Source of the DNA: a virus
Length of the DNA: 64,000 bases
Virus record (IMG/VR): IMGVR_UViG_2529292698_000003
Strand: one strand, 5' to 3'
In this document: positions 7,739 to 57,875 of the stretch, piece by piece
Layout: each line of letters opens with the position of its first letter
How positions within the stretch are numbered: position 1 is the stretch's first letter
The notes under the pieces: model-generated
The model's input: only the letters and a program-made list of their open reading frames with translations
Databases searched by the model: none
Told to the model about the DNA's origin: nothing
Made by a program: the position numbers and the translations under genes

Positions 7739-8293
7739 TCAAAAAATTTCTTTTAATTTTTCATCTTTAACTATCTTCCTCAATTTCCTAGAATAAGAAC
7801 CGTCTTCTGCATATATCCTGTCTAATAACTGGTATAATTGGGTTTCTGTTTTACATTCATCAGCATAAGTACTATACCATAATGCATAATCTAGGAGTGA
7901 TTCCTCGTAATTGTTATAATAAGCATGACCATATTGAGTTCCTAATGCTAAATTTAATCTTACTTTTGCTTCTTTTTGACCAAAACAGTTATGGTTCTCG
8001 ACAAATATTCTTGATGTAAAATTTCCTGTTTCTAATTTAGATTGAGCTAAAACTATATGAGGAAATTTAAAATTTAATCTATCAATCTTATCTACCAACT
8101 TATCTTCTGTAAATTTAGCAGTGTCTTCTACTAATAATATAGCCTCTGTTTCAATATAAGTATGATAAATTGTTCTACTTGTTTCTATTGTAAAATAGAA
8201 TATAGTGAACATGCTTAATATCATTAAATATTTAAACCACCACCTAGTGAGTTTATATTCAAGTGTTTGTTTATCAAATCTATACAACTTCAT
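7739..8293 (-). CDS. Membrane-anchored glucosaminidase-family (GH73-like) peptidoglycan hydrolase
   Basis: N-terminal TM; VLAQSKLETG, NHNCFG, YAED..Y..KL. Confidence 0.7.
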   Translation of the reverse strand: MKLYRFDKQTLEYKLTRWWFKYLMILSMFTIFYFTIETSRTIYHTYIETEAILLVEDTAKFTEDKLVDKIDRLNFKFPHIVLAQSKLETGNFTSRIFVENHNCFGQKEAKVRLNLALGTQYGHAYYNNYEESLLDYALWYSTYADECKTETQLYQLLDRIYAEDGSYSRKLRKIVKDEKLKEIF

Positions 8294-8886: not shown

Positions 8887-9984
8887 TTAGTATTCTATTT
8901 GATTATCTTTTAAATTTTGAAGATCTTTTAACTGTTTGCCTAGATGTGTAAGCGCTAATCCTTTTTTCTTTGATGAAACTGTAGAGGATTGGATTTTAGT
9001 AATTTCCTTCTCTGTATTCCTAATTTGTTCCTCTAATTTTTTAGCATCTTGAGATACCTCTTTATTCATTTGTTTTTCTAATTCAACTTGTGGATCAGGA
9101 ATTATTGGTTGTTTATCAGGTTGAACCATAATAGTGGGTTGTATTTTAGGTTCTTGCTTTATTTCACCATACATGTTTTTCTTGGGTTTAGTATTTTTAA
9201 ACGCTTGATTTGTTGCTATAACTAGAGCAATGGCTAATGGGTCAAAAACAAATATTAATATTAATATGAGCCAATTAGCTACGGTTTTAAGGGGTTTACC
9301 TGTTATTTCACTCATATATTTTATTACACCTAGTTCTCCATTTAATTCCTCAGTTGATTCTAGGTTTAAGATTTCTAATTCAAGTTTAGTTATACTATCA
9401 TTCAAAACATCTATTTGTTTTGAGATTGTATCCCTAGATTGGATTGAGAGTTCTAATTGGGTTTCAAATGTTTTACGAGCAGCGCTAGAAGTTGTTGAGA
9501 TTATTTCTCCGGTTTCTTTATCTTTATATTCTATTCTTGTCCCAGAAGAGAGTTGCTTTCGGAGTTCTGAGATGTCTTTTGTTAGAGTGGATTTTTCGGT
9601 TTGTTTTTCTTGTTTGGTAATTAAAAATCTATCTTTTTTAACTTCTATATTTTCTATAATACTTTGGTTAATGTTTAGGTTTGCAATGTTTTCGGTAAAT
9701 CCTTTACTCAACAAACCATAAATTCCTATAGAGGTAATTAAAGATAGTACTATTAACGCACCTGTTAAATATAATTTTAAAAAAGTATAGGTATTTTTCC
9801 ATTGGTTGTGGAGATATGTTGCAATTACAAGTTTAGAAGATTCTAAAAAGGATCCCATTATAATAACAGGTAAGGCAACAGCATTAAAAACAATTGAGAG
9901 CCCTAATACACTATAATAAGCAGCGGTAGTGGATAATCCTAAAGCACATATTAGTAATATCCAAGGTAATAATTTATTATTCAT
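8887..9984 (-). CDS. Multi-pass membrane protein with long coiled coil
   Basis: Three N-terminal hydrophobic helices, heptad region, further TM LILILIFVFDPLAIALVIA. Confidence 0.7.
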   Translation of the reverse strand: MNNKLLPWILLICALGLSTTAAYYSVLGLSIVFNAVALPVIIMGSFLESSKLVIATYLHNQWKNTYTFLKLYLTGALIVLSLITSIGIYGLLSKGFTENIANLNINQSIIENIEVKKDRFLITKQEKQTEKSTLTKDISELRKQLSSGTRIEYKDKETGEIISTTSSAARKTFETQLELSIQSRDTISKQIDVLNDSITKLELEILNLESTEELNGELGVIKYMSEITGKPLKTVANWLILILIFVFDPLAIALVIATNQAFKNTKPKKNMYGEIKQEPKIQPTIMVQPDKQPIIPDPQVELEKQMNKEVSQDAKKLEEQIRNTEKEITKIQSSTVSSKKKGLALTHLGKQLKDLQNLKDNQIEY

Positions 9985-10036: not shown

Positions 10037-10654
10037 TTACTTATCTTTTTCTGTGGCATACTTAACACCCATAATAGTACCTATAATACTAAATGAGTTA
10101 GTTAATAGAATACCAAATAAATTAGACCATGTAGATTCAATTATTTTGGAATCAGCACCCGTTGATAATACATATAAATATAAAGCCGTTGTCAGCAATC
10201 CAACCCCAAGTATAACCCAGAGTGCAACTTTTACAATAAGTCCCATTAACTCAAACTGGGTACGTTTTTGGAGAGTATCTAGATCTTCCATAGCAGCGTC
10301 TCTAAGTTTTTCAGCTTCTGATTTAGCAATCATAGCTTCTTTTTCAGCAACACGTGCTTCTTCCATTGCTTTTTCAGTTTCATCTAAAGCTTTTGATAGT
10401 TGCTTATTTACCCTATTATTTTCTTTTGCTGCTGCTTCAAGTTCTTTATTTTGTTCTTGGACTTGTTTAGTTACTTCTAATCGTTTTCTACGAGTAGATA
10501 CATCTTTTTCTTTACAAATCTTAAGGTATTCCTCAAATTCCGTGTCACCTTTTGGGGCTTTAAGGATTTTGAGGAAATTACCTTCTACATAGATTTTTTT
10601 CTTTTTTGCAACCTCTAGTAGAACATTTCTAGTATGTTCTGTTACTTCGATCAT
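10037..10654 (-). CDS. Coiled-coil protein with two C-terminal TM helices
   Basis: Heptad stretch then LIVKVALWVILGVGLLTTALYLYVL and LFGILLTNSFSIIGTIMGV; TAATG-coupled to the receiver gene. Confidence 0.7.
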   Translation of the reverse strand: MIEVTEHTRNVLLEVAKKKKIYVEGNFLKILKAPKGDTEFEEYLKICKEKDVSTRRKRLEVTKQVQEQNKELEAAAKENNRVNKQLSKALDETEKAMEEARVAEKEAMIAKSEAEKLRDAAMEDLDTLQKRTQFELMGLIVKVALWVILGVGLLTTALYLYVLSTGADSKIIESTWSNLFGILLTNSFSIIGTIMGVKYATEKDK

Positions 10655-11091
10655 TATCTATAAATCTTAAAAGGAGCAGACTTAGCTTTATAAGCTTCAT
10701 AATCACCCATAAAATCCTCTAAACGAGGTTCAATGTCATCTGATTTAATAATCCAGAATTGTGCACCTACTTTTTTAGCTCTTTCAATTTCTTCCTCATC
10801 TTCTGATGATGATATAATTCCTATTACTACTCCATCCCCATATTCAAAATTAATCTTTCTAATCATTTCAATACCATCAAATGATGAACCAATTATATTC
10901 AAATCTACAAATACACATTCTGGTCTTTCATGATCTGGATCATTAGGGAACCATTTTTTAAATAGTCTGTCGGCTTCATCTGAGCTGTCTAAAGCTTCAA
11001 ATGATAAAGCCATATCCAAAATTGAACATGCATCCTCAAATACTAGATGAAATAAGTTTTCATCATCAATTAACATTAATGTATTAATCAT
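10654..11091 (-). CDS. Single-domain response regulator (receiver)
   Basis: LMLIDDE acidic pocket, FVDLN phospho-Asp, IISSS, WIIKS Lys; no output domain. Confidence 0.88.
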   Translation of the reverse strand: MINTLMLIDDENLFHLVFEDACSILDMALSFEALDSSDEADRLFKKWFPNDPDHERPECVFVDLNIIGSSFDGIEMIRKINFEYGDGVVIGIISSSEDEEEIERAKKVGAQFWIIKSDDIEPRLEDFMGDYEAYKAKSAPFKIYR

Positions 11092-12362
11092 TAGTTTATT
11101 TTTATTTTTATTTTAGTACCTTTTTTAACTTTTCCAATAATAATATCAAAACCGTGTTCCTTAAGAATTTCAATACAGATGTTAAGTCCTAATCCTGTAC
11201 CTTGTTCTTTTTGGTTTTCTTTTCTAGTATAAGGTTTAGAAAACTCCCAAAACTCTTCTGAGGTTAATCCACGCCCGTTATCTTGTATACATATAAAGTT
11301 TTCTTCAGAGTATATTTTAACCCATTTAGTAGGAGAATCATTGTATTTAAGACCATTGCGAATTAAATTATCAACAGCTGTACAGAATAATGCTTCATTT
11401 GCTTTTAGATCTTTTGGTAAGTTCTCATCTAAAATAACTTGATTTTTATAAGCTGTAAGGCGTAAATAATCTTCAAGAATATTTTTTATATTACACTTAG
11501 TTACAGACATTTGAGCATTATTTTTTACTAAATTAGTAAATTCATAAACTCCAGAATATACTTTTTGGGAGTGTTTTAATCCATCCTCTATTAATTGTAG
11601 AGGTGCTTGGATTCTTAACTCTTTGATTTGCTCTTCAGATAATCTTCTCTTCAACGATTTGATACCTCTAGGTAAGTATGTGTTAATACCCGAGTGCATA
11701 TCATGTCTAATAATTTTAGAGGCGTGTTCTAAGTAAATATTCTTTTGAGCAATTTCATCTGTTGCTTTAATAATATCAGTAAGATCTTGTCTAACTGAGA
11801 CGTATTCAATCACATTATCATCATCATCAAAATTTGCTTTAATGTATGTGTCCACATAATAAAAACCGCCATCTTTTCGTTTATTGGTAACTACATCGTG
11901 CCAAATCTTACCTTGATGAACTGTATCATACATACCCTTCCAATATTTTTTAGGTTGTGTACCTGAATTAACTATAACGTGATCTCTTCCTTTAACTTCT
12001 TCAAATTTCCAACCAGATACCTCTTCAAACTTTTCATTTACATATGTTATCTTTGCTTTTGAATCTGCTTTAGTAACAATTGTTGCTTCTTGTATAAAAT
12101 CTTCAAATCGTTTGAACGAATGTATTTGTTTATCCAATTCTTCAGTTACTTTTTTCTTCTTATATAAAAACTCACTAACTACTTTAAAAAAAGGAGGCAT
12201 AAAGAATATTACACAACCCCAACCAAATTTAGCTAATTCTAAAGAGGGTTCACATAATCCAAATACAATACAAGTTTGTACTGCAAAGAAGGTTAACATA
12301 ATAATGCCTGCAATTGCTAAGGAAATTTTGGCATTAAGTGATATGCCATCTAAAGCACTCAT
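11091..12362 (-). CDS. Membrane-bound PAS/PAC sensor histidine kinase
   Basis: 2 TMs; PAS ITYVNEKF..VSGW...GRDH / W...TNKRKDGGFYYVDT; H-box IIRHDMHS; NLIRNGLKY, DNGRG, GTGLGL. Confidence 0.88.
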   Translation of the reverse strand: MSALDGISLNAKISLAIAGIIMLTFFAVQTCIVFGLCEPSLELAKFGWGCVIFFMPPFFKVVSEFLYKKKKVTEELDKQIHSFKRFEDFIQEATIVTKADSKAKITYVNEKFEEVSGWKFEEVKGRDHVIVNSGTQPKKYWKGMYDTVHQGKIWHDVVTNKRKDGGFYYVDTYIKANFDDDDNVIEYVSVRQDLTDIIKATDEIAQKNIYLEHASKIIRHDMHSGINTYLPRGIKSLKRRLSEEQIKELRIQAPLQLIEDGLKHSQKVYSGVYEFTNLVKNNAQMSVTKCNIKNILEDYLRLTAYKNQVILDENLPKDLKANEALFCTAVDNLIRNGLKYNDSPTKWVKIYSEENFICIQDNGRGLTSEEFWEFSKPYTRKENQKEQGTGLGLNICIEILKEHGFDIIIGKVKKGTKIKIKIN

Positions 12363-12365
12363 TTT

Positions 12366-12566
12366 TTACAATTCGGATTTTTTGAATCCACATTTACCGA
12401 AGAACCATTTTGAAGGACAAAAACCTGTCCATACTCCAACGTTCAACATAAATGTTACAAAAATTACTATACCCCAAGACTGTGTAAAATATCCTGTGAG
12501 CAATACAAATGACATTAAAAGATACACCATACGCGTATCAGTAATACTATTTAATAATTTTTTCAT
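12366..12566 (-). CDS. Small membrane protein, DUF2892/YgaP-like
   Basis: Two hydrophobic helices followed by TGFCP...FGKCG. Confidence 0.55.
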   Translation of the reverse strand: MKKLLNSITDTRMVYLLMSFVLLTGYFTQSWGIVIFVTFMLNVGVWTGFCPSKWFFGKCGFKKSEL

Positions 12567-12985
12567 GATCTTTTGCCTTTATGTTTATCGATTTTATCTA
12601 AAATAATGTTTAATAACTCATTTTTGATAAAACCTGCCATAGAAGCATTTTTAAGAGCAGACATTAATTGAAAAACTATAAATGGGGTAATAACTGTTTC
12701 ACTTAACCAACTAGTACCCTCAAAACCTTTTTCAATCATTAGGATTGCTGTAAGGATTATCTCCCAGGTTGCTAATGATTTTAATACTTTAAGGGCCTTA
12801 TATGTTTTGAATCCTTCTCTTTTGATGCCGGCTATTACACCAAAAAACCCATCTAATAGAAGTACAGCAGCAACCGCTAGATATTGTTCTGCATTAGCCA
12901 TTGTTAAATCCATAAAATAGGAACAAATAAATCCTATTGATGCTGATCCAGCTATTGTTACTTTCATGTATGTCGATTTGATCAT
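12563..12985 (-). CDS. Putative holin (toxin-secretion/phage-lysis holin type)
   Basis: 3-4 TMs, LLDGFFGVIAG, QLMSALKNASMAG, basic C-terminal tail; directly after endolysin. Confidence 0.6.
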   Translation of the reverse strand: MIKSTYMKVTIAGSASIGFICSYFMDLTMANAEQYLAVAAVLLLDGFFGVIAGIKREGFKTYKALKVLKSLATWEIILTAILMIEKGFEGTSWLSETVITPFIVFQLMSALKNASMAGFIKNELLNIILDKIDKHKGKRS

Positions 12986-13076
12986 CTTTAGTATAGGGTT
13001 ATAGTTTATATAAAAGCAATTTTAATACGAATCCATAATCTTTATATCCAAAGTAATGATTTAAATTCTTTTGTTT

Positions 13077-13086
13077 TTATAAATAT
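13077..13086 (-). promoter_or_regulatory. Class 2 (late-type) motif ATATTTATAA heading holin-HK-RR unit
   Basis: Exact motif in intergenic gap. Confidence 0.6.
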
Positions 13087-13101
13087 CTTCTAACTCTTTC
13101 A

Positions 13102-13983
13102 TTACAAACTTATCAGCATGTCCATCAACTCTTGTTGTGGGAACATATCTACTTTATCTTTTCTAGTATTAGTATGAGTCCAAAGACCTTTTACTCTTCC
13201 GTAATAAGCATCTTCGTTAAATTCGAATGCATCAGCACCTTTTTCTTTAATTAAGGCAGGTAAACCAGCTCTTACATCAATATTATCTCTTTCAGCAATC
13301 CATAAAATCCATTTATGTAAAGCTTCAATTTGAGCATCTGAGTAACGATGCCATAATTTATGTCCTCTAAATTCTTTATCTAATTCTACAATCTGTGAAT
13401 CTGCGACTGTAGTACCTGCATAGGTTTTACCATTTACTATATAACCAAAATTACATACTTCAATACCAATTGAGTTTACATGCATTTTTTGAGAACCGTT
13501 TTTACCTAAGTGCCAGCCATAATTTCCTTCTGGGAATGCTTGTACCATTTCTCCATCGTACTTATCATCATTTCCTTTTACGGAGGGGCCTCCTAATACG
13601 AATTCTGTAGCTACTGCACCTCTTGAATCTCTACCCCAACTATCAATTGTTTTGTATGGGTTGTGCCAACCTGCTGTATGGTGTAAAAATAACCATTCAG
13701 CATTAATAGGACCTTGTTTATATTCGCCTACTGGGAGAAAATGTCTGTTAATTACTAAACCATTATCTGTTGTATAAACTTTTTCAGAAGTATCTGTAGT
13801 AGCTAATCCCATTGCATCCCATGTAGCAGGACCTACAATACCATCAGCAACTAAATTATTATTAGTTTGCCATTTTTGAACAGCAGATTTGGTTCCTACA
13901 CCAAAGATACCATCAGCATTAATATTTAAAAATTCTTGTAGTTCTTTTACGTCTTTACCTCGTGAACCTATTTTTAGTAACAT
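13102..13983 (-). CDS. Endolysin: PG-binding domain plus N-acetylmuramoyl-L-alanine amidase (Amidase_2)
   Basis: DGIFGVGTKSAV..WQ...L.ADGIVGPATW; FLHHTAG; IGIE; HTNTRKDKVDMFP. Confidence 0.88.
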   Translation of the reverse strand: MLLKIGSRGKDVKELQEFLNINADGIFGVGTKSAVQKWQTNNNLVADGIVGPATWDAMGLATTDTSEKVYTTDNGLVINRHFLPVGEYKQGPINAEWLFLHHTAGWHNPYKTIDSWGRDSRGAVATEFVLGGPSVKGNDDKYDGEMVQAFPEGNYGWHLGKNGSQKMHVNSIGIEVCNFGYIVNGKTYAGTTVADSQIVELDKEFRGHKLWHRYSDAQIEALHKWILWIAERDNIDVRAGLPALIKEKGADAFEFNEDAYYGRVKGLWTHTNTRKDKVDMFPQQELMDMLISL

Positions 13984-13985
13984 AA

Positions 13986-14243
13986 TTATTCCCCCTTTTT
14001 CGTAAATATTTTTGTTATACCATCAATACCAAACGAACCTAAAGTAATAATTACGAAGGAATTGAAAATAGTATCAGTAATTAATAATTCTTTACCTAAT
14101 GCACCCGTGATAATATCAGCTGCGGCAAATATTACCATTACTGCAAATGAAGAGAATCCAACGATATTCTTTTCGTTAAGATCATTACTATCTTTAAATA
14201 TGTCTTTAAATGCCATAAATTTGGTTTTAATATATTGAATCAT
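13986..14243 (-). CDS. Small two-TM membrane protein (holin/antiholin candidate)
   Basis: Two hydrophobic segments, immediately upstream of endolysin. Confidence 0.5.
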   Translation of the reverse strand: MIQYIKTKFMAFKDIFKDSNDLNEKNIVGFSSFAVMVIFAAADIITGALGKELLITDTIFNSFVIITLGSFGIDGITKIFTKKGE

Positions 14244-14269: not shown

Positions 14270-14279
14270 TTATAAATAC
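14270..14279 (-). promoter_or_regulatory. Class 2 late-type motif GTATTTATAA
   Basis: 26 nt upstream of ATG 14243. Confidence 0.6.
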
Positions 14280-14280
14280 A

Positions 14281-14309
14281 AAAAAAAGGAATGCTATTGC
14301 ATCCCTTTT
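14281..14309 (-). terminator. Intrinsic terminator
   Basis: AAAAGGGATGC-AATA-GCATTCCTTTT followed by T run. Confidence 0.75.
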
Positions 14310-14331
14310 CTAAAAACAATATTTTTTCTTT

Positions 14332-35023: not shown

Positions 35024-36733
35024 TTAAGCAGGAAACTCAGCTCCTGTTGGTTGTAAAATAAAATCTAGGTTGATAAATTCTGCTGTTCGTGTTGGTTGAA
35101 TGTAAATTTGGCCTACTAATTGGTTTCTATCAATTACATCAGGTGTATTTAATGTATCATCCATAATCACTTTAAACGCATATAATCCTTGTTTTTGTTT
35201 AATATCTTCTAAATAAGGGTTTACTGTTGCTAAGAATTTATTTCTAGTAGTGATTGAGTTTTGTTCAAATACTAAGTTATCTGCTGTTTGACCAATAAAT
35301 GATTTTAATTCAATTAATAATCTTCTAACATTTACTCTATCAAGTGCAGATGCATCTTTTTGGAGTGTTTTTTGTCCAAATACTACAATTCCTTTTCTAG
35401 GGAAAGTTGCAATTGGGTTAATATTGTTAGCATATAATTCATCTCGGTTTGCTTGAGATAATTTATTTTTAGCTCTAAGTACAGATCCTAAACCACCTCT
35501 GTTAATACCTGCTGGGGCAAACCAAGGTGCAGCTACTTTATCTGTGTTAGCATAAACTCCTCCAATCATTGTTGAAGCAGGAACCCATACTCTTTTACCT
35601 GTTTCTGGGTCTTGGATTCGTAACCAAGGCCAATAAGTAGCAGCATATGAATTATCTCTAGTTTGAGCTTGAGTTACAGCTTCAGCTAATGTTCCATCAT
35701 ATCCAACCATATCAACTACATAAATATTATCTCCACGTAATTGTGTGTTTGTGATAATTGAACTAATTACACCTGTATGTGTAGCAGCTGAGTTTAATAA
35801 TCCTGGGGTAAGTAAGGTATTAAATGAGTAATCATCTTTGTTTGAAAGGAGATTAACCATATTAGTATAGTTACCTGAAGTTAATCCTTGAGTATCTGTA
35901 TTGTCTATGTTTTCGTAAAAATTAGCTCCTCCTTTTACATCACCTGTTGCTCCACTAAATGAACCAGACCCATTTTGTGGAATAGAAGCCGTATATGCTG
36001 AAACTGCTACTCCAGAATTATCTAAGTAATTAGGTGTTGGGGTTACATTTTTAACTCGTACATATCTTGAATTATTAGGGAATGAACCACTAACAATATC
36101 TACTTGGTTTTCTGTTGAGTTATAAGAAACTACTTGATCTCCTATCACACTTGAAATAAATCGTGGAGAATTTGGATCTAAACTTACATTTGTAAATGAT
36201 TCAATAACAACTTTTTTATTTGTTCTATCATTACCCTGACGAATTAATACATTAAATGTACCTGATCCTGTGTTTGAGTTTGTAATTTCCCATCTAACAT
36301 TATCTAAAGATCCTGAAACTAAAGATCCATCAGCATTTAGTGCTCCTGAGTTATTCATGATAATTCCTTCAGAAAGGGTTTCTAAGGCAAATGAAGAAGA
36401 GGTAGCATCAATATAGTTTGAAATTGTTGTTGAAGTTGCAGAAGTATATGATCCTGTCACTACTCTAGCTACTAAAAGTGATTCGCCTCCATTATTAAAA
36501 TAATTATATGCTGCAATTGATGTTAAATATGAATAAGTATCACTTCCACTTATAAGTGAACCCCCAAATCTATTTTTATAATCTGAATATGAGGTTACAA
36601 CTATTGGAATTTCTACTGGTCCTTTAACTGTTGGTCCTATGATTGCTGCTCCTACTTTAACAGGAATAGGAGAAATAAATGTATTATCTATTTCATTAAG
36701 AGATACTCCTGGTGATGTTAAAAAGTTTGCCAT
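35024..36733 (-). CDS. gp18: Tail sheath protein, copy 2
   Basis: SPGVSLNEID, GPTVKGP, WFAPAGINRG, FGQKTL, DRVNVRRL, FEQN, IQPTRTAEFI. Confidence 0.92.
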   Translation of the reverse strand: MANFLTSPGVSLNEIDNTFISPIPVKVGAAIIGPTVKGPVEIPIVVTSYSDYKNRFGGSLISGSDTYSYLTSIAAYNYFNNGGESLLVARVVTGSYTSATSTTISNYIDATSSSFALETLSEGIIMNNSGALNADGSLVSGSLDNVRWEITNSNTGSGTFNVLIRQGNDRTNKKVVIESFTNVSLDPNSPRFISSVIGDQVVSYNSTENQVDIVSGSFPNNSRYVRVKNVTPTPNYLDNSGVAVSAYTASIPQNGSGSFSGATGDVKGGANFYENIDNTDTQGLTSGNYTNMVNLLSNKDDYSFNTLLTPGLLNSAATHTGVISSIITNTQLRGDNIYVVDMVGYDGTLAEAVTQAQTRDNSYAATYWPWLRIQDPETGKRVWVPASTMIGGVYANTDKVAAPWFAPAGINRGGLGSVLRAKNKLSQANRDELYANNINPIATFPRKGIVVFGQKTLQKDASALDRVNVRRLLIELKSFIGQTADNLVFEQNSITTRNKFLATVNPYLEDIKQKQGLYAFKVIMDDTLNTPDVIDRNQLVGQIYIQPTRTAEFINLDFILQPTGAEFPA

Positions 36734-36755: not shown

Positions 36756-36765
36756 TTATAAATAT
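36756..36765 (-). promoter_or_regulatory. Class 2 late-type motif ATATTTATAA
   Basis: Exact motif. Confidence 0.65.
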
Positions 36766-36772
36766 TGGTTTT

Positions 36773-38491
36773 TTATTCAAAAGTTACTCCTGTTTGTGTA
36801 ACATTAAAATCTAATACTATAAATTCAGCTGTTCTTACAGGTTGGAGATATATGGCACCAACAAGTTGGTTATTATCAATTACAGTTGGTGTATTATTAG
36901 TTTCATCCATTACTACTCTATACGTGTATAAACCTTGTCTTTGTTGAACAGATGATAAATAAGGATTTACTTGAGATGTAAAATCGTTACGTGTTGCTAC
37001 AGTATTTTGTTCAAATACTAATGAATCTGCAATTTGTTTTATAGTAGATTTTAATTCTATTAATAAACGACGTACATTTACTCTATCTAAAGCACTTTTC
37101 TTTTTCTGAAGTGTTTTTTGTCCAAATACTGTTACTCCTGAGTTAGGGAAAGTAGCAATTGGGTTGATATTTGCTTCATATAAAGTATCTCTATTTCCTT
37201 GGGTTAAAATTCTTTCTGCTTTAATTACTGTAGGTAAAGTTCCACGAGTAATTCCTGCTGGTGCTATCCAAGGTTCTGAAATTGAATCTGTAAAAGCATA
37301 GATACTTGGCACCATTGTTGAAGCAGGTACCCAAACTTGTTGTCCCGTATTAGGATCTAAGGTTTGTAACCAAGGCCAATAAGTAGAAGAGTATGAATTG
37401 TTTACAGTAGATGCTTCACTTACTACTTCCGATATATTAGCGTTGTAATCTAACATATCTACTATAGCCATAGTATCACCTCTTTCTTGACATTTTGTAA
37501 TTAAAGAATTTACTACAGAAGCATGAGAAGCAAAATCTCTAACCAATCCAGGTGTTGAAATATATTTAAATTGATATTCGTCTTTATTAGAAAGAAGATT
37601 TATTGCTTGTGTATAGTCTGAAGCTATTAAACCTTGTGAGTTAGTATTAGTTATATTATCATAGTATTTTCCTTCTGTTGCTGGGATATTAGTTCCTGTT
37701 GCACTACCAAATGAACCACTTGAAGCTATTGGAATTGATGAAGTAAAGGCAGATACTGGGTCTCCTGAATTGTCTATATAATAAGGGGTTTTTCTGTTTA
37801 CTTGTTTAACTCTTATATATCTAGATTGGTTTTGATAATTACCAGAGAGTTGAAGAAAGGTATCAGAGCCATCAGTTGCTATAGTTGTGGTTTGATTACC
37901 TATGACTTTTTCAATATAATTAGGGGTTGTTGGATCTAGTGTTAAATTATCCCATGTTTCTAATACCACAGGAGAAATTCTATCATCATCTCCTCTACGA
38001 ACTAGTAAAGTAAAAGTACCTGAAGAGGTGTTAGGGGAGACGATTTGCCATCTTATATTATCTGAGGAGCCTGAAGGGAGGGAATTATCTGCATTTTCTG
38101 TAGAATCACTATTCATAATTATCCCTTCAGATAATGTTTCAAGTTCAAATATTGTACCTAATGTTCCATCACTACCAGAAATGAATGAGCTAGTAGCAGG
38201 TGTAAATGAACCACTTGTAACACGTGTTACTAACAATGAAGTTCCTCCTCTATTAAAGTAATTATATGCTGAAATTGAAGTAAAATAAGTATAGTTTTGG
38301 CTTCCACTAATAAAAGAAGTACCAAACTTATTTACATATTCAGAATAAGTTGTTACAATTGTTGGTCTTTCAACAGGTCCTTTTACTGTAGGACCAATGA
38401 TAGCAGCCCCAGCTTCAATAGGTTGTTGAGTAATAAATGATTGATCATTTTCAACAGTTAATACTCCAGGGGATAATATAGTTTCAGCCAT
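36773..38491 (-). CDS. gp18: Tail sheath protein, copy 1
   Basis: SPGVLTVEND, GPTVKGP, WIAPAGITRG, FGQKTL, DRVNVRRL, LQPVRTAEFI. Confidence 0.92.
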   Translation of the reverse strand: MAETILSPGVLTVENDQSFITQQPIEAGAAIIGPTVKGPVERPTIVTTYSEYVNKFGTSFISGSQNYTYFTSISAYNYFNRGGTSLLVTRVTSGSFTPATSSFISGSDGTLGTIFELETLSEGIIMNSDSTENADNSLPSGSSDNIRWQIVSPNTSSGTFTLLVRRGDDDRISPVVLETWDNLTLDPTTPNYIEKVIGNQTTTIATDGSDTFLQLSGNYQNQSRYIRVKQVNRKTPYYIDNSGDPVSAFTSSIPIASSGSFGSATGTNIPATEGKYYDNITNTNSQGLIASDYTQAINLLSNKDEYQFKYISTPGLVRDFASHASVVNSLITKCQERGDTMAIVDMLDYNANISEVVSEASTVNNSYSSTYWPWLQTLDPNTGQQVWVPASTMVPSIYAFTDSISEPWIAPAGITRGTLPTVIKAERILTQGNRDTLYEANINPIATFPNSGVTVFGQKTLQKKKSALDRVNVRRLLIELKSTIKQIADSLVFEQNTVATRNDFTSQVNPYLSSVQQRQGLYTYRVVMDETNNTPTVIDNNQLVGAIYLQPVRTAEFIVLDFNVTQTGVTFE

Positions 38492-48914: not shown

Positions 48915-48924
48915 TTATAAATAC
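48915..48924 (-). promoter_or_regulatory. Class 2 late-type motif GTATTTATAA
   Basis: Directly after capsid terminator. Confidence 0.6.
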
Positions 48925-57865: not shown

Positions 57866-57875
57866 TTATAAATAT
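57866..57875 (-). promoter_or_regulatory. Class 2 late-type motif ATATTTATAA
   Basis: Exact motif overlapping terminase stop. Confidence 0.65.

Follow-up and report, generated by a model that had tools for sequence, protein, structure and literature searches.

The 64-kb window analyzed here (64,000 nucleotides of IMG/VR virus record IMGVR_UViG_2529292698_000003, in which all positions below are numbered) comes from a myovirus genome; all its genes are on the minus strand, and its G+C content is about 31%. Directly downstream of its endolysin gene lie five intact open reading frames (ORFs) of 140, 66, 423, 145 and 205 amino acids (aa), which encode, in that order, a holin homologue, a small DUF2892-type protein with two transmembrane (TM) helices, a sensor histidine kinase, a receiver-only response regulator and a coiled-coil/TM-hairpin protein (CC-TM protein). 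The four gene junctions are ATGA, TAA-AAA-ATG (with a 3-nt spacer), TAATG and TAATG. An initial annotation, made from the DNA letters alone, had described five tightly joined genes after the endolysin and behind a late-type motif (13077), and the ORFs, coordinates and junctions were all found to be correct. By sequence, the kinase and receiver genes are translationally coupled with the DUF2892-type gene upstream and the CC-TM gene downstream, and we propose that they are co-transcribed. Our analysis describes a real, intact and widespread phage signalling module whose output component is well supported and for which a role in the control of lysis is plausible; its best explanation, to which we give an even chance, is a phage-encoded phosphorelay ending in a membrane protein seen only in viruses.

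In the case of the kinase, Pfam called PAS_9, PAS_3 and PAS above their cut-offs and HATPase_c (PF02518) at 51.7 bits (cut-off 26.4) and nothing else; there was no match to Pfam HisKA. The dimerization and histidine phosphotransfer (DHp) domain is nonetheless recognisable, as H220-D221 is invariant in IRHDMHSG and the AlphaFold2 (AF2) model has the corresponding helices at residues 195-240 and 252-281. This model (predicted local distance difference test score, pLDDT, 80) is composed of helices 9-33 and 41-93, a PAS domain (95-193), the DHp domain (195-281) and the catalytic ATP-binding (CA) domain (288-421). H220, DNLIRNGLKYND, DNGRG and GTGLGLNI, that is, the H, N, G1 and G2 boxes, which the initial annotation had described as intact, proved to be invariant across 13 diverse relatives. 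When the model was compared by Foldseek the top matches were PAS/LOV-DHp-CA histidine kinases, with E values down to 2.7e-18, and HK853 and the HK853-RR468 complexes were among the structural and sequence matches. The protein has the features of an intact class I histidine kinase with two TM helices and almost no outer loop, and it is predicted to autophosphorylate.

The PAS domain had been assigned at first reading to the Aer/NifL flavin type, and the searches agree with this. Its best solved relatives by sequence were the flavin adenine dinucleotide (FAD)-binding PAS domain of MmoS (3ewk, E 1.9e-20), Aer (6.8e-13) and NifL (2.2e-12), and by structure it was matched with 3ewk at a root mean square deviation of 1.4 Å over 116 columns with 36% identity; the domain is thus classed with the flavin-binding MmoS/NifL/Aer type, and FAD binding is predicted.

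The receiver matched Response_reg (PF00072) with 31.0 bits, just above the cut-off of 30.2, and no further domain was called in its 145 aa, in agreement with the earlier view of a stand-alone receiver with no DNA-binding output. The acidic pair D9 and D10, the phospho-acceptor candidate D63, S94-96 and K116, likewise reported before as intact, are invariant in 25 receiver sequences, and so is helix 1; identity ranges from 63 to 88% across 23 phage relatives and is 59% and 65% to two rows derived from metagenome-assembled genomes (MAGs). We consider it an intact single-domain receiver without an output domain, with phosphorylation predicted at D63.

The third component, the CC-TM protein, was modeled by AF2 with a pLDDT of 85 as a small N-domain (residues 1-33), a single helix (38-165) which runs from a cytoplasmic coiled-coil stalk into TM1, and a second helix (170-204). 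In the alignment of the family TM2 is nearly invariant, and the coiled coil is variable both in length and in sequence. Foldseek of the model against the PDB returned no match with an E value below 2.9. An exhaustive search of 1.84 billion representative proteins with a profile of the TM hairpin alone recovered 112 clusters, and the ESM Atlas clusters nearest to the family were 100% viral; the CC-TM hairpin family is therefore small and seen only in viruses. Two candidate homologues of the hairpin were rejected: the 67-aa protein encoded after the holin of the related Flavobacterium phage immuto (see below) reached a probability of 26% in hhalign over 46 TM columns, too weak to use, and the 85-aa protein of the window reached 0.6%.

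Table 1. Positions of the cassette genes, their functional parts and the adjoining lysis genes in the 64-kb window.
Feature	Position	Strand	Basis or remark
Late-type promoter-like motif ATATTTATAA (gene strand)	13077..13086	-	Full copy 100 nt upstream of the holin start; putative promoter
Holin homologue, 140 aa, Phage_holin_4_1	12563..12985	-	Pfam; family-wide match
Two-TM protein, 66 aa, YgaP-like_TM / DUF2892 type	12366..12566	-	PF11127 matches of relatives; conserved R12, C50-P51-S52
Sensor histidine kinase, 423 aa: TM1, TM2, linker helix, PAS, DHp, CA	11091..12362	-	Pfam, AF2 model, Foldseek
PAS domain of the kinase, residues 95-193, flavin-binding type	11784..12080	-	Sequence and structure match to 3ewk
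H220 codon, predicted phospho-accepting His, H-box IRHDMHSG	11703..11705	-	Same residue in all 13 diverse kinases compared; central in DHp helix 195-240 of the AF2 model
Catalytic ATP-binding domain, N/G1/F/G2 boxes	11100..11501	-	HATPase_c 51.7 bits; boxes invariant
Receiver-only response regulator, 145 aa; D9, D10, D63, S94-96, K116	10654..11091	-	Response_reg
Coiled-coil/TM-hairpin (CC-TM) protein, 205 aa, proposed relay output	10037..10654	-	AF2 model, profile searches
TM hairpin of the CC-TM protein, residues about 136-200, motif STWSNLFGILLTNSFSIIGTIMGVKYA	10055..10249	-	Alignments
Endolysin, PG_binding_1 + Amidase_2 (context)	13102..13983	-	Pfam and PHROGs
Two-TM protein, 85 aa, heading the endolysin unit (context)	13986..14243	-	Late-type motif 14271-14278 ahead

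The window phage is uncultured and T4-like; its genes include those for a T4-type major head protein, a portal protein, two sheath paralogues and a ribonucleotide reductase, and no tRNA genes were found in the 64 kb. Its closest cultured relative by major capsid protein is Flavobacterium phage vB_FspM_immuto (NC_055915; 59% identity), and the host is thus probably a member of the aquatic Bacteroidota. Near-identical DNA was found in sequencing runs from 11 studies, labeled as estuary, freshwater, marine, marsh and soil. When IMG/VR was scanned with the kinase, 126 related stretches were recovered, and the 60 loci with distinct kinase sequences were examined. In these loci the kinase, receiver and CC-TM genes are found as a set, always in this sequence, as far as the flanks permit, and in most cases the stop codon of one gene overlaps the start codon of the next, so that the coiled-coil two-TM protein, which the initial annotation had placed with the kinase-receiver pair, is indeed its constant companion. 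The conserved unit is this triplet, usually with a DUF2892 gene ahead, and not a holin-kinase coupling: the translational coupling to the holin described in the initial annotation is not what relatives conserve, as their holin and endolysin genes are located before, after or far from the module. Module-bearing genomes measure 117-285 kb and come from many habitats, and the frames are intact in every full-length locus.

Among 50,697 GenBank phage records no DNA match to the cassette was found, the receiver and the CC-TM protein had no match and the kinase matched only Aer-type PAS pieces; phage immuto carries no kinase, receiver, DUF2892 or CC-TM gene, and four unrelated genes occupy the position. 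Neither cultured phages nor the searchable literature yielded a description of the module. Its absence from immuto and the existence of deletion derivatives (described below) are what would be expected if these were a passenger or a decaying moron, that is, signalling genes gained by horizontal transfer that play no part in the life cycle of the phage. This we hold to be very improbable, given the receiver identity among phages, the nearly invariant TM2 of the hairpin, the retained catalytic residues and the intact frames in genomes of this size range and from so many habitats.

The strongest indication of what the module acts upon was provided by the CC-TM family itself. Of its 112 clusters three are rewired, having a PAS or GAF domain in place of the N-domain: P0179 is a PAS-PAS-coiled coil-hairpin protein, P0170 a PAS-coiled coil-hairpin protein and P0150 a GAF-coiled coil-hairpin protein. 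Neither a kinase nor a receiver is encoded on the fused-variant contigs L096 and L097. The GAF domain of P0150 is 64% identical to the one inside a 592-aa kinase of the same family as the window kinase, and between the fused PAS domains and the second PAS of those kinases that have two the identity is 50%; since the fused domains match the family kinases' own sensors, the same sensors appear to reach the hairpin either directly or through a kinase and a receiver. This use of the same sensors in one-component and in two-component wiring marks the hairpin protein as the output, and we conclude that it is probably the output of the relay.

The hairpin is nearly invariant in phages without the 140-aa holin family, in soluble-kinase loci without a DUF2892 gene and in the fused forms. 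As it is kept without those proteins, its constraint would not come from contact with the holin, with the kinase TM helices or DUF2892 partners, or with the relay; more likely sources are self-assembly within the membrane and a conserved target in the host. A different kind of fusion was seen in P0209 and P0227, which join the TM region at the kinase N-terminus to the last TM helix of the hairpin protein. These look like natural deletions that removed the kinase-receiver-stalk interior, although chimeras created during assembly are another possibility.

In 185,579 species genomes only nine matching loci were found, all of them in MAGs and mostly in phage-like contexts. A cellular homologue (L089:3438-6838) lies on a 967-kb Bacteroidetes MAG contig, next to genes for cytochrome c, TauE (sulfur transport), TetR and ABC1, and consists of a multi-PAS kinase and a 143-aa receiver with no CC-TM gene. 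Its kinase and receiver are 42% and 58% identical, respectively, to the phage proteins, and helix 1 of the receiver does not differ between phage and cell. This pair is a candidate source of the phage genes, and the kinase-receiver pair was probably captured from Bacteroidota, the hairpin protein being added in phages. The cellular pair and its invariant helix 1 would also suit a captured pair that acts mainly by cross-talk with the homologous host kinase or receiver, or with host targets of the receiver, and so reprograms the behavior of the host late in infection, the CC-TM protein being only an anchor or accessory; so would a large phage-like contig (L081) which encodes a soluble three-PAS kinase and a receiver with no CC-TM gene nearby. 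We judge such a hijack of host signalling to be improbable: practically every locus has a CC-TM gene after that of the receiver, the sensor-fused hairpins that exist without kinase or receiver are not explained by pure hijack, and with nine matches among the species genomes a widespread host target pathway is not evident.

Regarding the input of the relay, the sensors vary widely. Among the 60 loci about 36 kinases have no PAS and comprise just two TM helices, DHp and CA, about 19 are window-like, two are soluble PAS kinases and three have a GAF domain plus PAS; longer relatives, of 528-596 aa, contain two or three PAS domains, and those of 529-596 aa reside on phage-like contigs of 192-285 kb. 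The initial annotation had suggested redox sensing by the PAS domain; as about 60% of the related kinases have no PAS, redox sensing is not the common input of the relay.

Signs of an exchange or addition of kinase genes were also seen. Compared with window positions 10037-13983, loci L048 and L050 have holin, DUF2892 and receiver proteins that are 93-95% identical and an endolysin that is 91% identical, together with a hairpin protein that is 75% identical and a PAS-less kinase that in its core is only 72% identical to that of the window; the high identity of the neighbors beside the divergent kinase core suggests that kinase alleles are exchanged within the cassette. In two large phage contigs (L018:7253-9252 and L023:7764-9805) a second HATPase_c kinase of 445-479 aa is encoded, along with a protein of 201-221 aa, between the first kinase and the receiver, and two kinases may feed one receiver there.

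The first gene of the cassette, taken at first sight as holin-like, encodes a member of Phage_holin_4_1 (PF05105). The 140-aa protein alone is borderline in Pfam (22.6 bits, cut-off 22.2), and the family was matched by all 17 of its relatives (best E 2.5e-8); it also matched the holin phrog_199 in PHROGs and shares 62% identity with the protein annotated as holin in phage immuto, and holin activity is predicted. As for the DUF2892-like character given to the 66-aa protein, the window protein itself had no Pfam match, and 9 of its 16 relatives matched PF11127 (YgaP-like_TM, DUF2892; best E 2.3e-5). R12 and C50-P51, which represent the Arg and Cys-Pro signature, are invariant in the alignment of this family, and its profile found no meaningful match among the PDB sequences. 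The DUF2892 gene stands immediately upstream of the kinase in 51 of the 59 loci with a TM-bearing kinase and never beside soluble kinases.

Linkage with lysis genes, on which the initial annotation had made its proposal of a role in lysis timing depend, was evaluated in the 53 of the 60 distinct loci that had enough flank to be informative, and it was found in the majority of lineages and not in a minority. A holin or endolysin gene is located within 300 nt of the module in 37 of these loci and within 2 kb in 5 more (42/53), in at least six gene orders and with enzymes of three endolysin families, Amidase_2, GH19 and glucosaminidase. Endolysin and holin precede the module, as in the window, or follow it, or else a holin, a small TM protein and an endolysin come before it; a GH19 enzyme is encoded directly after the hairpin gene in the soluble-kinase loci and 1.4-1.5 kb downstream in another lineage. 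Endolysin genes are also found 2-5 genes away from the fused variants, and encode a PG_binding_1 + GH19 enzyme or a glucosaminidase next to which a faint GH19 match was seen.

The cassette also sits behind the same motif as the structural genes, which we count in favor of the phosphorelay. The motif ATATTTATAA (gene strand) is found 17-40 nt upstream of 14 window genes, including the sheath, major-head and portal genes, the sites at 36757-36764, 48916-48923 and 57867-57874 being examples; it equals the reverse complement of the T4 late box TATAAATA plus flanks, and TATAAATA occurs 37 times in the window against 17 expected. It may be the late promoter of this lineage. Scans of the cassette for intrinsic terminators and sigma-70 promoters found nothing above shuffled expectation, with the exception of a 13-bp hairpin (14282-14311). 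This minus-strand stem-loop is followed by a T run and comes just ahead of the late-type motif belonging to the 85-aa/endolysin unit, being likely a terminator between that unit and the ribonucleotide reductase genes.

Several observations weigh against the phosphorelay reading with its link to lysis. No recognisable lysis gene was found within 3-6 kb in 11 of the 53 informative loci when the neighbors were run against Pfam and PHROGs; in two complete genomes of 117 kb a distance of about 70 kb separates the module from the only Amidase_2 gene detected; and five related module-bearing records are without this holin family, so that the effector cannot act solely through this holin. As many of the loci are related, the neighborhoods counted do not each represent a separate event, and the proximity may mean no more than that the module and the lysis genes are placed in one common region of genes for late membrane proteins. 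A shared input signal is not evident, as most of the related kinases have no PAS. The contact between receiver and hairpin protein is presumed from gene order and domain rewiring. As for expression, contigs from two DNase-treated marsh metatranscriptome runs of one study are at least 99% identical over the hairpin, receiver, kinase, DUF2892, holin and endolysin genes; this RNA support consists of contigs of a single study in which DNA carry-over is possible, and strand, level and absence are not readable from contigs, so that the gaps in their cover (9770-9963 and above 14232) cannot show absence. One RNA-library contig (X15) skips 503 nt (11746 to 12250), a span that takes in the PAS region of the kinase.

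The separation of the module from recognisable lysis genes in about a fifth of the loci and in the two complete genomes would be accounted for by a membrane role other than lysis timing, such as superinfection exclusion, control of ion flux or energisation for late production, or envelope remodelling. The same could be said of the module staying beside the ribonucleotide reductase while the lysin-holin pair moves, and of the further membrane proteins of 70, 85 and 365 aa held by the region. We regard such a role as unlikely, albeit with an appreciable share of the probability: three unrelated endolysin families recur nearby in several gene orders, the fused variants included, and the late-type motif fits poorly with exclusion functions, whose genes in T4 are early ones. 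Overall, control of lysis timing by the module is plausible, and the module probably adjusts membrane permeabilisation or lysis to the state of the host.

According to the phosphorelay that we favor, the kinase would read the state of the infected cell, redox or energy through the flavin of the PAS domain and the state of the membrane through its TM helices, possibly with the DUF2892 protein as a partner. The phosphoryl group would then pass from H220 to D63 of the receiver, and the phosphorylated receiver would bind the small N-domain at the coiled-coil tip of the CC-TM protein; the signal would run along the continuous stalk-TM1 helix and alter the assembly of the hairpin in the inner membrane. 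More speculatively, this assembly might permeabilise or depolarise the membrane, or block that, and holin triggering and lysis would come earlier or later, with either sign possible. A more specific version, namely that the hairpin is a signal-gated pore or depolarising channel, in other words a regulated holin switched by the phosphorylated receiver or by the fused PAS or GAF domain, is a tentative idea which we find possible and somewhat doubtful.

The region contains other genes that deserve mention. Directly after the module, with its own late-type motif, is the gene for a 365-aa protein (8887-9984, minus strand) with four predicted TM helices and long coiled coils; it belongs to no known family, and its homologues follow the module in many loci (37-48% identity, 55% in L084) and one is present in phage immuto (37%). 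Further on, a second peptidoglycan hydrolase is encoded (7739-8293, minus strand), a 184-aa glucosaminidase (PF01832, E 2.5e-13) with a hydrophobic N-terminal stretch, which could be a signal-anchored endolysin; in L097 a homologue with 36% identity is encoded downstream of the gene for the GAF-fused hairpin, at a distance of a few genes. On the other side of the cassette, the 85-aa protein has a homologue in phage immuto, 50% identical, whose gene also precedes the endolysin. The tail-sheath paralogues are in tandem (35024-36733 and 36773-38491, minus strand), with 569 and 572 aa and matches to phrog_23 (E 1.5e-72 and 5.7e-77, respectively), and a late-type motif is located ahead of each.

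Phage fitness and the carbon release from abundant aquatic Bacteroidota both depend on when lysis takes place. To our knowledge, hardly anything is known on how phages adjust lysis to the state of their host, apart from the T4 type of lysis inhibition and the holin/antiholin pairs. The module described here offers a complete virus-encoded chain, from sensor domains of known types through kinase and receiver to a dedicated membrane effector, in both two-component and one-component wiring, with defined handles for direct testing in H220, D63, the N-domain and the TM hairpin. Were the hairpin indeed a regulated pore, hundreds of aquatic phages would run a phosphorelay lysis clock reading the redox or energy state of the host, a mode undescribed for any virus.

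Of the known systems, T4 lysis inhibition (holin T, antiholins RI and RIII; PMC8385771) resembles the proposed one in that dedicated proteins sense the condition of the cell and act post-translationally on a membrane lysis protein, by which lysis is timed. However, T4 senses superinfection by direct protein binding in the periplasm, whereas here a kinase, a receiver and a cytoplasmic coiled coil would respond to signals which are likely intracellular or of the membrane. The likeness concerns function only, the link to lysis being presumed in our case. No evidence of homology was seen, either to T4 lysis inhibition, the holin being a Phage_holin_4_1 member and the effector a family of its own (T, RI and RIII were not searched directly), or to the LytSR system of staphylococci, whose domains were not compared. 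LytR is a DNA-binding transcription regulator, and LytS a multi-TM sensor of a different kinase family. LytSR with CidAB-LrgAB (PMC2996381) is similar to the module in that a two-component system is connected with cell death and the activity of murein hydrolases and ends in small membrane proteins resembling holins. It differs in its output: Pfam found no LytTR-type DNA-binding domain in the window receiver, which places it outside the LytSR type, and here the presumed output is protein contact and the system is encoded by a virus.

Closer in design are CheA-CheY-FliM and HK853-RR468, which likewise combine a class I kinase core with a receiver-only regulator that acts by binding a partner; in our case the proposed partner is a coiled-coil/TM-hairpin protein of no described family, and the system is viral. 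Phage immuto shares with the window the order of small TM protein, endolysin and holin, and the homologue of the 365-aa protein downstream. No paper describing a complete phage-encoded two-component system was found in the literature searched, where only host systems affected by phages and the agr genes of Clostridioides difficile phage phiCDHM1 (PMC4124054) came up. The agrC gene of that phage, the only phage-borne histidine kinase documented in the same literature, is comparable to the kinase gene of the module; nevertheless, phiCDHM1 carries agrB, agrD and agrC without a response regulator and relies on its host, whereas in the window phage the kinase, the receiver and the presumed effector are all encoded by the phage.

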